Below, in pieces: positions 7,808 through 19,921 of a stretch of DNA of 64,000 nucleotides. The notes under the pieces were generated by a model. That model did no database searches. It was not told the DNA's origin and was given only the letters and a program-made list of their open reading frames with translations. Position 1 is the stretch's first letter, and every line of letters begins with the position of its first letter. Both the position numbers and the translations under genes were made by a program. This DNA comes from an uncultured Bacilli bacterium (lineage in GTDB: Bacteria > Bacillota_I > Bacilli_A > RF39 > UBA660): the NCBI GenBank assembly GCA_934176955.1, contig CAKPOS010000003.1:53411-117410 (forward strand). Reading direction: 5' to 3'.

Positions 7808-8611
7808 ATGAATATTATTAGGTGCATTGTTTTAGGAATTGTTCAAGGAATAGGAGAATTTTTACCCATTTCTTCTTCAGCACATTTAATTTTAGTTCCT
7901 TATTTATTAGGTTGGAAAGAGTCTTCAATGGCTTTTGATATTGCCCTACACTTTGGAACTTTAATGGCTGTTTTAGTAATTTATTTTAAAGATTGGTGGA
8001 ATTTATTCATTGGAGCTTGTAAAAATCTCTTTAAAAAGGAAGATACAACAGAAGGAAAAATGTTTTGGTATTTAGTAGTAGCAACAATACCAGCTGCTTT
8101 AGTAGGACTCCTATTAGATGATGTTATTGAAGGATTCTTTCGTAATCAGATATGGGCAATTGCTTTATTATTAGCACTAATGGGAGTATTTATTTATGCT
8201 GGAGATAAATGGGCTAGTAAACATTATCGAAAAAAAGAAGTACCTTTTGAAAAAATAACTTTAAAGCAGGCGTTTTTAGTAGGATGTTCTCAAGCATTTG
8301 CTGTTTTTCCAGGATTTTCTAGAAGTGGTACCACAATATTAGCAGGAAGATTAATGGGACTTAGCAAAGAGGCAATTACTAAATTTACTTTTTTAATGTC
8401 TGTTCCTATTATTGCAGGGGCTACAGTACTAAAAATAGGAGAATTGCAAATGACTAGTGAAGTGATTGCTGGAATTGTAACTTCTTTTGTAGTAGGAGTA
8501 ATAAGTATCAAGTTCTTACTTCGTTATATTAAGAAACATGATTTTTCTATCTTTGCTTTTTATAGAGTTATCATTGCAATATTAGTATATATTAAATTAA
8601 TTTGGTTTTAA
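7808..8611 (+). CDS. uppP: undecaprenyl-diphosphate phosphatase
   Basis: GEFLPISSSAHL and PGFSRSG motifs, with about 8 TM helices. Confidence 0.9.
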   Translation: MNIIRCIVLGIVQGIGEFLPISSSAHLILVPYLLGWKESSMAFDIALHFGTLMAVLVIYFKDWWNLFIGACKNLFKKEDTTEGKMFWYLVVATIPAALVGLLLDDVIEGFFRNQIWAIALLLALMGVFIYAGDKWASKHYRKKEVPFEKITLKQAFLVGCSQAFAVFPGFSRSGTTILAGRLMGLSKEAITKFTFLMSVPIIAGATVLKIGELQMTSEVIAGIVTSFVVGVISIKFLLRYIKKHDFSIFAFYRVIIAILVYIKLIWF

Positions 8612-12126: not shown

Positions 12127-14742
12127 GTGAAGAAAGATAAAAGGAAAATAATTGGGGGATTTGTTGGGATAATATTATTTATGTGTTGTGTTACTTATTT
12201 TACGTATGCTTTTTATCAATGGAAGAGTGGTAATAGTGATGTTAATTTAACGATTAAAGATTCAACTGGAGGAGGAGAATGTTCTAATGGACCTAATGTA
12301 GATGTTTCTAATATTGGGCCTGTTTTAAATGTTAGTGATGGAGTAAAAGCTAACTTTTCTGTAAAAAATAAAAGTTCTTCTAGTATTTCTTTAACTTTAG
12401 GGTTAAAGATTACTTCAATTAGTAATCCTCTTAGAGTAGAATCTTTTAAATATGCTTTATATCAAGATACAACAGGGAATGATACTTTTGATTATAGTAC
12501 TAATCCTATTTTATCAGGTGATTTTAGTAAAATGCGTGTAGGAGATAATACATTATCTACTACTTTAACAGTAGAAAAGGAAAGTACTTATTCTTTTCAA
12601 TTTATTGTCTATATAGATGGAAATATGGAGAATGATTCTTCAATGATGAATAGTAGCTTATCCGCTTCAATTACTTATGGAGATTGTACGAATCCTTATA
12701 CCTATTTAGCAAGTGTTGAGCCGGGTAGTTATGTAAAATATATAGGTAATAATGGTTGCTCAGGAAAGTCTTGTGAAGGGCAGAATGCAAACTATGTTAG
12801 TGATACGGATATGGGATATTGTTATGGTTCAAGTTACAAATATAATGCAAATGGATGGCGCGTTGCTTATGTAAAAGATGGTACAGCTTATTTAACTAGT
12901 GCAGGTTCCCCTGAATGTATGTGTACGAATAATGATGGGACATCAGGGACAAGTTGTAATGGTTATGAAACAACGGATGGGATACCTAAGCATATAGCAA
13001 ATTTAAATTCAAAAGCTTTAGCTTACTGCAACAGTACTTATGCGTATGGGGGAAAGTGTGACAGTAATAGTGCATGGAATATGGCAGATGCAGACTTTCA
13101 AACTATTACAGGTGATAATTTAATTACAGCTTATAAAAAATCAAATTATAATAGTTATTCCATTATTAATAATGGGGGATATTATTGGTTTGCGACATCT
13201 GATTTTTCGTCCATGGTTGCGTTCTATTGGTACCCGAGCAATTGGAATGTGAATAGCAGCCGCTCGGAATTTGCGTACGGTCTTCGTCCAGTCCTACGTC
13301 TTGCCTCTTCCGTCATCGTGACAGGAGGCTCAGGTACCTATGAAGATCCTTATACAATTACAAATAAAATCACTAAGTTATCTGAAGCTGGAGAAGGTTC
13401 TTATGTAAAATATACAGGAAATAATGGTTGTTCAGGAAAGTCTTGTGAAGGACAGAATGCAAACTATGTCAGTGATACTGATATGGGATATTGCGATGAT
13501 TCTAGTTATAAATTTAACGCAAATGGTTGGCGTGTTGCTTATGTAAATGATGGTACAGCTTATTTAGCTAGTGCAGGATCACCTGAATGTATGTGTACCG
13601 ATAGTGATGGAACAGCAGGGACAAGTTGTAGTAATGATGAAGAAACAGGCGGATTGCCAAAACATATAGCAAATTTAAATTCAAAAGCTTTAGCTTACTG
13701 CAACAGTACTTATGCGTATGGGGGAAAGTGTGACAGTAATAGTGCATGGAATATAGCAGATGGCGACTTTCAAACTATTACAGGTGATACTTTAAGTACA
13801 CGTTTTAACTACTCAGGTGGTTATTATGATAGTTATTCCATTATTAATAATGGAGGATATTATTGGTTCGCGACGCCTCTTAGTTCCTCGTCCTCGTACG
13901 CTTTCATTTGGGACCCGAGCGGCTATCGAAAAGTGGCCGGCAGCTTCTCCAATATTTCGAACGGTCTTCGTCCCGTCCTACGTCTTGCTTCTTCCGTCGT
14001 CGTGACTGGAGGCTCTGGTACTTATGAAGATCCTTATACGATTTCAAACGGAAACACTAAGTTATCTGAAGTGGCACCCGGTAGTTATGTTAAATATACA
14101 GGAAATAATGGTTGCTCAGGAAAGTCCTGTGAAGGGCAAAATGCTAACTATGTTAGTGATACCAATATGGGATATTGTTATAATTTTGATTATAAATATA
14201 ATGCAAATGGATGGCGCGTTGCTTATGTAAAAGATGGTACAGCTTATTTAACTAGTGCAGGTTCCCCTGAATGTATGTGTACGAATAGTAATGGTGTAGC
14301 TGGAACAAGTTGTGGTAGTGATGATGTGGAAGAAACAAACGGATTGCCAAAACATATAGCAAATTTAAATACAAAAGCTTTAGCTTATTGTAATAGTACT
14401 TATGCGTATGGCGGAAAATGTGATAGTAATAGTGCGTGGAATATGGTAGATGCAGACTTTCAAGCAATAACAGGGGATACATTAAGTGCAGCTTATGATC
14501 AATCAGGTGGTTATTATGATAGTTATTCCATTATTAATAATGGAGGATATTATTGGTTCGCGACGCCTCATAAATCCACGTCCACGTTAGCGTTCTATTG
14601 GGCTCCGAGTGATCGACTCGTGAACAACTACTACTCGAACAGCGCGTACGGCCTTCGTCCAGTCCTACGTCTTCAATCTTCCGTCACTGTGACAGGAGGT
14701 ACAGGAACATATGTAGATCCATATAAGATTGAAATTAAATAA
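12127..14742 (+). CDS. surface/secreted protein with an N-terminal signal anchor, an Ig-like region and three tandem Cys-rich modules ending in GLRPVLRL
   Basis: 871-aa ORF with GGAGAG RBS and GTG start. The TM segment is IIGGFVGIILFMCCVTYFTYAF. The triplicated module is described under findings. Confidence 0.8.
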   Translation: MKKDKRKIIGGFVGIILFMCCVTYFTYAFYQWKSGNSDVNLTIKDSTGGGECSNGPNVDVSNIGPVLNVSDGVKANFSVKNKSSSSISLTLGLKITSISNPLRVESFKYALYQDTTGNDTFDYSTNPILSGDFSKMRVGDNTLSTTLTVEKESTYSFQFIVYIDGNMENDSSMMNSSLSASITYGDCTNPYTYLASVEPGSYVKYIGNNGCSGKSCEGQNANYVSDTDMGYCYGSSYKYNANGWRVAYVKDGTAYLTSAGSPECMCTNNDGTSGTSCNGYETTDGIPKHIANLNSKALAYCNSTYAYGGKCDSNSAWNMADADFQTITGDNLITAYKKSNYNSYSIINNGGYYWFATSDFSSMVAFYWYPSNWNVNSSRSEFAYGLRPVLRLASSVIVTGGSGTYEDPYTITNKITKLSEAGEGSYVKYTGNNGCSGKSCEGQNANYVSDTDMGYCDDSSYKFNANGWRVAYVNDGTAYLASAGSPECMCTDSDGTAGTSCSNDEETGGLPKHIANLNSKALAYCNSTYAYGGKCDSNSAWNIADGDFQTITGDTLSTRFNYSGGYYDSYSIINNGGYYWFATPLSSSSSYAFIWDPSGYRKVAGSFSNISNGLRPVLRLASSVVVTGGSGTYEDPYTISNGNTKLSEVAPGSYVKYTGNNGCSGKSCEGQNANYVSDTNMGYCYNFDYKYNANGWRVAYVKDGTAYLTSAGSPECMCTNSNGVAGTSCGSDDVEETNGLPKHIANLNTKALAYCNSTYAYGGKCDSNSAWNMVDADFQAITGDTLSAAYDQSGGYYDSYSIINNGGYYWFATPHKSTSTLAFYWAPSDRLVNNYYSNSAYGLRPVLRLQSSVTVTGGTGTYVDPYKIEIK
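12691..14715 (+). repeat. three tandem coding repeats: R1 12691-13344, R2 13345-14028, R3 14029-14715
   Basis: Unit boundaries are set at the recurring (D/N)PYT(I/Y) motif. R1 and R2 share a 92-nt perfectly identical stretch (12991-13082 = 13663-13754). Confidence 0.9.
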
Positions 14743-16639: not shown

Positions 16640-16864
16640 ATGAATAAAGAAAAAATAAAGAATATCATTTATATTGTAGTAGCGATATTACTATCTTACT
16701 TTGCTATTCACTTTATGATTTGGGTATTACCATTTATTTTGGTTGCTTTACTTGCTTATTTCATTTATGAAAAATTAAAGACAAGTGATAAAAAAGTGAA
16801 TAGCAATAAAAAGAAGAAGAAAAAAATAGTCATTATTGACGAAGAAAGTCATGATAATAAATAA
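16640..16864 (+). CDS. small two-helix membrane protein with a poly-Lys tail
   Basis: Strong AAGGAG RBS. Hydrophobic helices are followed by NKKKKKKIVIIDEE. It is inserted between grpE and dnaK. Confidence 0.55.
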   Translation: MNKEKIKNIIYIVVAILLSYFAIHFMIWVLPFILVALLAYFIYEKLKTSDKKVNSNKKKKKKIVIIDEESHDNK

Positions 16865-16876
16865 AAGGAAAGGTGA

Positions 16877-18715
<1,839 letters not shown>

Positions 18716-18787
18716 TAAAGAAAACAAGTTCTAGGTAACTAGAACTTCTTCTTTATCAAAAAATAACAAAAGAAAGTAGGAATAAAG

Positions 18788-19921
18788 ATGGATAAAAAAG
18801 ATTATTATGAAGTCTTAGGTGTTTCTAAGGATGCAACTGATGCTGAGATTAAGTCTGCTTTTCGTAAATTAGCAAAAAAATATCATCCTGATGTTTCAAA
18901 AGAACCGGATGCTGCTGAAAAATTTAAAGAATGTCAAGAAGCTTATGCTGTATTATCTGATCCAAGTAAAAGAAAACAATATGATCAGTTTGGTCATGCT
19001 GCTTTCCAACAAGGAGCAGGAGGAGCTGGAGGATTTAGCAACTTTGACTTTGGAGACATGTCAGATATTTTTGAAGACTTGTTTGGTGGCATGGGTGGAT
19101 TTGGAGGATTCTCTGGATTCACACAATCAGGATCAAGAAGAAGTTCTAATGGTCCAAGAAAAGGCAATGATGTTTTGTATAGGATGACCATTGATTTTGA
19201 AGAAGCTGTTTATGGATGTAAGAAAGATTTAAAATTGGATATTGTAGATACTTGTCCAGAATGCGATGGAAAAGGTGGTTTTAATCCTAGTACTTGCTCA
19301 ACATGTAGAGGTTCAGGAACAGTAACTTCTGAACAAAGAACTATGTTTGGAAGTTTCTTAACCAAAACAACTTGTCCAGATTGTAAAGGCTCAGGAACAA
19401 GTTTTGAGAAAAAATGCTCAACATGTAGAGGAACAGGTACAGTAAAAAAGAACAAAACCATAACGATTACTATCCCAGAAGGAATTGATACCGATAATCG
19501 ACTTCGAGTAGCAGGAAAAGGAGAAGCTGGAGCAAACGGAGGAAAACCAGGAGATCTATATGTCGAGTTTACAGTAAGAGACCATGAATTTTACCAAAGA
19601 GATGAAGATGATATTTATATTGAACTTCCTCTAACGATTACAGAAGCCATTTTAGGATGCAAAAAAGAAGTTCCAACTCTTTATGGAAATGTTAACTTAT
19701 CTATCCCTTCAGGTACCCAATCTGGTGCAAAGTTGCGCCTAAAGGGAAAAGGGGTTACTAATGTTAGTACCAAAAGAAAAGGGGATATGTATGTTATTAC
19801 AAAAGTTATCATTCCAGAAAAATTAACAAGGGATCAAAAGAAATTAATTGAATCATTAAATAATACTTCATTAGATAATTCCCAAGAGTTTAAGAAATAT
19901 TATAAATTTTTAAATAAATAA
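18788..19921 (+). CDS. dnaJ: molecular chaperone DnaJ
   Basis: J-domain with HPD, a G/F region and four CxxCxG zinc motifs. Confidence 0.95.

Follow-up and report, generated by a model that had tools for sequence, protein, structure and literature searches.

The DNA analyzed here, hereafter the window, is a stretch of 64,000 nucleotides from an uncultured Bacilli bacterium (assembly GCA_934176955.1, contig CAKPOS010000003.1, positions 53,411 to 117,410) and takes up positions 3488-67487 of a 122-kb contig. Directly upstream of hrcA-grpE-dnaK, it carries a gene for an 871-aa protein in which three short G+C-rich blocks are very probably variable regions (VRs) written by a diversity-generating retroelement (DGR). 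The protein begins with a hydrophobic anchor, continues in an N-terminal domain of ~190 aa, and then consists of three modules of ~225 aa each in tandem (copies R1, R2, and R3), which share a mean column identity of 90% when aligned at the DNA level. Exactly the same 871-aa protein is called in two ENA assemblies (ERZ27286996 and ERZ27287106), from two samples. The features of the gene, with the basis of each assignment in parentheses, are as follows.

12127..14742, + strand: target gene, 871 aa (open reading frame, ORF, and its translation)
12700-13374, 13372-14058, and 14056-14742, + strand: three tandem modules of the target gene (module alignment)
13207..13290, + strand: VR1, in module 1, TCG TCC ATG ... 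CGT CCA (alignment with template repeats, TRs)
13291..13302, + strand: element 3' of VR1 resembling an initiation of mutagenic homing (IMH) sequence, GTCCTACGTCTT (identity with verified VRs)
13303..13338, + strand: GC-rich tail after the IMH-like element, TCTTCCGTC..GTGAC.GGAGG, encoding SSVxVTGG (alignment), with equivalents at 13987-14020 and 14674-14700
13888..13974, + strand: VR2, in module 2, longer than the TR family by one codon, GGC (TR alignment)
13975..13986, + strand: IMH-like 3' element of VR2, GTCCTACGTCTT (alignment)
14578..14661, + strand: VR3, in module 3, ... GTG AAC AAC TAC TAC TCG AAC AGC GCG TAC GGC CTT CGT CCA (TR alignment)
14662..14673, + strand: IMH-like 3' element of VR3, GTCCTACGTCTT (alignment)

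The blocks were first noticed by their composition, in a reading of the letters alone (the original prediction), and both their intervals and their richness in G+C held up when computed: 77 of 149 nt (51.7%; 12 CpG) at 13190-13338, 88 of 156 (56.4%; 18 CpG) at 13865-14020, and 79 of 146 (54.1%; 16 CpG) at 14555-14700, against 27.7% for the window; the hand count of 84/150 made for R2 was close. Among sliding windows of 120 nt, only these three places exceed 0.50 G+C in the 64 kb (mean, 0.277; sd, 0.055). The profiles of G+C at third codon positions (GC3) and of CpG along the gene, which the original prediction had proposed to plot, both peak in the blocks (GC3, 0.47-0.70 versus 0.03-0.27 elsewhere in the gene; CpG per 90 nt, 8-12 versus 0-3), and the blocks are poor in A (13-21% versus 34% in the module flanks) and rich in C (26-31% versus 12%). 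The codons that had been named as rare elsewhere are indeed so when nine long ORFs of the window serve as background: GCG makes up 4.6% of block codons versus 0.13% of background codons, TCG 3.95% versus 0.21%, CCG 1.97% versus 0.09%, GGC 3.3% versus 0.31%, and AGC 3.95% versus 0.33%, and these five together with TAC and TTC are several-fold to 35-fold commoner in the blocks. Codons ending in C are generally enriched about 5- to 10-fold or more (AAC, 3-fold). Columns that vary between the module copies fall in codon positions 1 and 2 versus position 3 at a ratio of 29:14 within the blocks, compared with 44:48 for the flanks (Fisher p = 0.04), and in the first variable codons all 7 differences between R2 and R3 involve an A, as had been pointed out. 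The statement that the block is the only divergent part of the modules was too strong, since alignment columns 240-300 and 420-480, outside the block, are also only 67-80% identical between copies.

In a DGR, the TR is transcribed, a reverse transcriptase (RT) copies it faithfully except opposite adenines, and the cDNA replaces the VR up to the 3' IMH. With one module as the query, 44 homologs were found, all from gut metagenomes and none with a Pfam domain, and across them the scaffold residues (YYWFAT, W.P, G.RPVLRL) alternate with freely varying positions; a metagenome scan added 19 further homolog loci. Three homolog loci lie in ordinary chromosomal neighborhoods with no RT within 10 kb. 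The GC-rich block is present only in the closer relatives, and distant homologs without TR-like sequence have a GC3 of 0.07-0.20 at that place. When the blocks were compared by BLAST with all these homolog loci, a third, shorter copy was found in locus L030, in an intergenic position, within the following arrangement.

L030, 5517-7001: target 1, followed by four small ORFs
L030, about 8456-8551: TR of 90 nt, AAC/AAT-rich, with 30 A, between the small ORFs and a 313-aa RT ORF
L030, 9686-11653: target 2, after the 313-aa RT ORF

The 313-aa ORF encodes a reverse transcriptase (RVT_1, E=3e-15) of a family with YQDD, and its translation contains IGxxxSQ, which we take to be typical of DGR RTs. Of the small ORFs, one matches MutS_I (MutS domain I, E=5e-8) and one has a weak match to bAvd. 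The TR differs from its two flanking VRs at 18/30 A and 0/60 non-A sites and at 18/30 A and 1/60 non-A sites, respectively. For the VR of L029, found on a separate contig in that assembly, the differences from this TR amount to 13/30 A and 0/60 non-A sites. Because L029 and L030 come from the same assembly and match in coverage (3.51x versus 3.54x, as given in the contig names) and in G+C (0.27 in both), L029 is probably a non-adjacent target of the L030 element. The L029 gene (8792-10663) has two modules and provides an internal control: only the C-terminal module, which matches the TR, is GC-rich (GC3 0.63), whereas the equivalent stretch of the N-terminal module is AT-rich (GC3 0.07-0.10). 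Therefore, the compositional anomaly marks TR-derived sequence in this target family. Synteny between the L030 cassette site and the window was uninformative, with a single flanking gene having an ortholog (46% identity).

The RT of L030 has 1423 homologs at E<1e-20, one of them annotated from a "Bacilli bacterium" metagenome-assembled genome, and seven TR variants were recovered from the contigs of RT homologs. All sit just upstream of RT genes, are non-coding and AAC/AAT-rich, and consist of A-free scaffold codons (TTC, TGG, CCG, CGG, GTG, TCG, GCG, GGC, CTT, CGC) among AAC/AAT codons. The window blocks align with all seven variants codon for codon and with no change of frame; their unusual A-free codons (GCG/TCG/CCG/ACG/CGN) are the scaffold codons of the TRs, and the NNC/NNT codons to which the original prediction had drawn attention sit where the TRs have AAC or AAT. 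It is at this point that an origin without retrohoming becomes very improbable. If a segment from a GC-richer donor had recombined into the gene and spread by module duplication, with ordinary diversifying selection providing the variability, a sharp compositional switch would also be seen, and mosaicism between alleles is evident (see below). However, the contigs bearing the family are themselves only about 26-32% G+C, and no GC-rich donor turned up. Homology of the block to non-coding, AAC/AAT-rich repeats next to RT genes also argues against such an origin, as do NNC/NNT codons changed in positions 1 and 2 and verified TR/VR pairs of the family with adenine-only changes.

Between TR and RT lies a ~190-nt spacer (L030:8546-8740; also in L047, L049, L054, L058, and L061) that is better conserved than the TR itself, with the conserved stretches …CCATTCCTAAATGATTAGG…TATTATTTAGGACAGATTTTATTCCTTGTATTT…. 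It aligns over its full length, below threshold, with the RT-14 RNA of Rfam (RF02921; 28.1 bits versus a gathering score of 48.1, E 0.07), and it is possibly a structured part of the DGR RNA. The TRs also vary in length (L054:4878, L056:4869, L058:2700-2800), that of L058 having a 9-nt duplication (AACGCGTTC) and one AAC fewer, and some cassette VRs differ in length from the neighboring TR and match another TR variant instead, which suggests TR turnover or exchange between strains.

To compare the window VRs with this family, the 69-nt core was split by means of the six TR variants of equal length into 23 columns that are always A, 28 that are invariant and non-A, and 18 that are polymorphic. 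Pairs of window VRs differ at 12-15/23 always-A columns and at 0-3/28 invariant non-A columns (p=1.5e-7 to 2e-3), the clearest case being VR2 versus VR3, with 15/23 and 0/28, respectively (p=1.5e-7). Against the six TR variants, the window VRs are changed at 11-15 of 24-26 A sites and at 6-15 of 43-45 non-A sites, a number of non-A mismatches that overlaps the 4-10 of verified VRs compared with non-cognate TRs; at columns that are non-A in every TR, 2-3 of 28 differ. For VR1, the core has 11-12 of 24-26 A changed together with 3/28 invariant non-A columns. Two departures from every sampled TR are shared (CGG to CGA in R2 and R3, CGC to CGT in all three VRs), as would be expected if one unsampled cognate TR had served as template.

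Further evidence comes from the orthologous locus of another strain (L053), which likewise lies upstream of hrcA and shares 93.8% nucleotide identity with the window in 2.3 kb of flanking sequence. The allele there (503-1345) has a single module, whose VR differs from the TR of locus L049 (TR_L049) at 16/25 A sites and 0/44 non-A sites; this TR comes from an unrelated run and adjoins an RT with 83% identity to the L030 RT. Therefore, within this species group, the locus is a true target of a DGR that does not adjoin it. Between L053 and the window, identity drops to 63% over the first part of the VR from 95% in the alignment window just upstream. A second one-module allele, L028 (608-1285), from another sample, has a VR nearly identical to VR3 (1 difference in 90 TR-aligned nt). 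Its identity to module 3 is 100% along a stretch of about 180 nt and about 90% elsewhere, and its IMH-like element has drifted to GTTTTACGTCTT. These mosaic identity profiles and the one-module alleles indicate that module number and VRs are reshuffled by recombination. The comparison of the locus between strains, which had been suggested as a check on whether variation is confined to the block, thus gave a divided answer: the L053 VR is wholly different, but the protein is unchanged in two samples and VR3 recurs in L028, so that no hypervariation is seen at that scale.

The original prediction had also pointed to a GC-rich IMH next to the variable region, and this was right in spirit. The 12-nt GTCCTACGTCTT is identical after all three window VRs and after the verified VRs of L030, L029, L053, L054, and L056, and the TRs carry TTCCTAAATGAT at the same place, just as an IMH and its IMH* counterpart would be arranged; we infer the function from position. 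The GC-rich tail that follows is kept among VR-bearing homologs and missing from the TR. A hairpin or cruciform after the VR was considered and rejected, the predicted stems being no more stable than shuffled sequence (z -0.4 to +1.2); because of this, no structural role is claimed for the tail. Across lineages, synonymous sites are conserved in the 12-mer and in the next ~35 nt, as would also be the case if the stretch were held GC-rich, independently of any retroelement, by selection acting on the nucleic acid (for instance on an RNA or DNA fold or on a recombination site). The folding result speaks against this explanation, an element by which a DGR recognizes its target would be expected to be conserved as the 12-mer is, and neither inverted repeats nor recombinase genes were found near the target gene; we consider it extremely improbable.

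The sole Pfam match of the protein is to DUF6273 at residues 805-850 (13.5 bits, below the 23.5-bit cut-off). An AF2 model of one module (pLDDT 96.5) had a single significant Foldseek match, an IgA peptidase of Thomasclavelia ramosa (E 1.5e-4). Weaker matches included the C-terminal, DUF1566-type domain of Legionella Lcl (E 0.19, TMt 0.53), phage DUF6273/DUF1566 proteins (E 0.02-0.2), and many C-type lectin domains (E>1). The modeled fold is thus compatible with the lectin-like scaffolds usual for DGR diversification, although this is not proof. In the wider family, a distant homolog (P0014, L007:8027-11182) has a prepilin-like N terminus (…KGYMMVELV…) and lies one ORF downstream of a divergent T2SSE-family ATPase gene, which hints that some members are displayed on a pilus-like structure. 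Candidate defense genes (RloB and an AAA_21 ATPase; DUF6088 and AbiEii; L004:4424-6342 and 16668-18244) lie in the chromosomal surroundings of another homolog, P0009.

Several observations weigh against the interpretation of the blocks as DGR-written VRs. First, the retroelement is not in view: RT, MutS-like, Avd-like, and other small ORFs of an L030-type cassette gave only noise in the 64 kb (tblastn, E<10), the TR-spacer DNA matched nothing there by blastn except the three blocks themselves, and a repeat search of the same 64 kb found no fourth copy of the block. The 64 kb are thus without RT, Avd, MutS-like (MSL) gene, TR, or TR-RT spacer, which upholds what the original prediction had said on this point. 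Beyond the window, the pattern CTTCGTCCNGTCCTNCGTCTT had 18 matches in genome and viral contigs, all in unrelated GC-rich sequences, and this pattern spans the VR-specific IMH-like element and cannot detect a TR; the viral collection contained neither target homologs nor TR-like patterns, and the element is therefore not represented in IMG/VR. Second, no cognate TR for the window VRs is among the seven sampled variants, and the three VRs differ mutually at 5-9/18 TR-polymorphic columns, mostly third positions of AAY codons, with two private C-to-T changes in R1 and the extra codon in R2. Because of these mutual differences at polymorphic columns and by one codon, one current TR cannot have written all three VRs as they stand. 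Single-codon indels had been listed from the start as counterevidence; one is present, but its weight is small, because TRs of different lengths and VRs unequal in length to the adjacent TR both occur. Third, the contrast between A and non-A sites is partly confounded with protein constraint, because the non-A columns code for scaffold residues; the stronger argument lies in the C-ending codons combined with the homology of the blocks to a template that is non-coding. Finally, there is the identity of the protein in two samples with the recurrence of VR3, and the predicted structural likeness to C-type-lectin-like folds is weak.

Many of these points would be accommodated if the blocks were relics, that is, if the DGR of an ancestor or of a donor allele wrote them and the present strain, lacking a working DGR, now changes them by ordinary mutation and by recombination of alleles and modules. 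We give this a chance only slightly short of even. The missing DGR parts and cognate TR, the mutual differences at non-adenine third positions and by one codon, the identical protein, a VR3 shared with an allele whose IMH-like element has drifted, and identity profiles in which recombination moves segments are all in its favor, and L054 VR1, with 9/60 non-A mismatches to its own TR, shows that stale VRs exist even within a genuine cassette. On the other side, the window VRs keep the IMH-like 12-mer in all three copies, and their G+C and CpG, equal to those of verified VRs, point to little amelioration. The shared CGA and CGT departures fit one unsampled TR, and the 64 kb are about half of the source contig, whereas targets more than 100 kb from their RT are documented (PMC5758913).

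Taken together, the related cassettes with RT, TR, and MSL/Avd-like genes, the codon-for-codon TR alignment, and the adenine-only VR of L053 support the original suggestion of current or fossil DGR targets, and we consider it highly probable that the three blocks are VRs written by mutagenic retrohoming into a three-module protein. With the cognate RT and TR outside the 64 kb, the target gene is remote (non-adjacent) or orphan. Whether the VRs can be rewritten in this strain now is finely balanced, the intact 12-mers and undiminished G+C and CpG being the evidence for it and the lack of a single template behind all three VRs the evidence against it. Under this interpretation, a TR of A-free scaffold and AAC/AAT codons would have been copied into the VR of each module, and each VR would inherit A-poor codons rich in G+C and CpG, along with variable NNC/NNT codons, all of them alien to a genome of 28% G+C; the sharp compositional switch would arise because the VR inherits the codons of the TR. 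The VR lies at the C-terminal end of each lectin-like module of a membrane-anchored, presumably surface-exposed protein, and its variation may serve to vary a ligand-binding face. That a chromosomal DGR, located at a distance of more than 50 kb or else on a different replicon, acts in trans on all three VRs as live targets, with module number tuned by recombination between VR-bearing modules, is a bolder and rather doubtful proposal. If true, one surface protein would have three independently randomized lectin-like binding faces, and retrohoming would be combined with copy-number variation.

Two observations concern the neighboring genes. Between grpE and dnaK (window 16640-16864) is an ORF of 74 aa whose N terminus is hydrophobic and whose tail is Lys-rich, and a similar 73-aa ORF is called at the matching place in L053. 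Between dnaK and dnaJ, L053 has an extra AAA_14/DUF4143 ATPase gene (L053:5475-6788) that is not present in the window (18715-18788).

The mechanism of DGRs is already known, an ORF with three VRs is rare but has precedent, and the general understanding of DGRs is left unchanged by these findings. Their use is of two kinds: (i) a signature in raw sequence, namely, a short block in an AT-rich genome that is poor in A, rich in C and CpG, and built with NNC codons, can flag a DGR target even when the retroelement is off the contig, and such targets are the remote or orphan cases missed by contig-based surveys, which themselves state that they miss remote targets (PMC8144416); and (ii) a chromosomal DGR lineage of the MSL/Avd type is documented in uncultured gut Bacilli, with many TR variants, a target family that has no Pfam model, and one ORF that is unusual in having three VRs and in which the number of modules differs from strain to strain.

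Wu et al. 2018 (PMC5758913) described targets located remotely (>100 kb from the RT), accessory genes of the MSL type, and cassettes of avd/MSL architecture, with Treponema denticola and Legionella as examples of "Architecture D" and remote-target DGRs. In the cassettes related to the window gene, as in those MSL/Avd DGRs, the TR lies a short way upstream of the RT, small ORFs resemble MSL and Avd, one TR serves several targets, targets also occur on other contigs, and TR and VR differ only at adenines. They differ in that the RT lineage belongs to uncultured low-G+C gut Bacilli, the target family lacks a Pfam model, and the RT/TR partner of the window gene is outside the view. Among target proteins, those with a C-type-lectin fold (Mtd of the Bordetella phage, Treponema TvpA, and the DUF1566/Legionella Lcl C-terminal type) likewise have the VR at the C-terminal end of the domain, and there too an aromatic/Gly scaffold (here YYWFAT ... 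W.P ... G.RP) alternates with variable positions that are AAY in the TR. In contrast, the window module is larger (~225 aa), Cys-rich, and tandem, and its structural match to that fold is weak (TM about 0.5, E 0.02-0.2). Several VRs in one target ORF have been found in 31 DGRs (Yan et al. 2019, PMC6642488), and a precedent is MarpuDRAFT_1558 of Marichromatium purpuratum (Schillinger et al. 2012, PMC3521204), an ORF that bears three VRs and is composed of three FGE-sulfatase paralogs in tandem. Unlike in that protein, the domain in the window is DUF6273/DUF1566-like rather than FGE-sulfatase, the VRs are unequal in length and differ at some non-adenine sites, and other strains have a one-module allele; like it, the window ORF consists of three tandem modules, each of which bears a VR.

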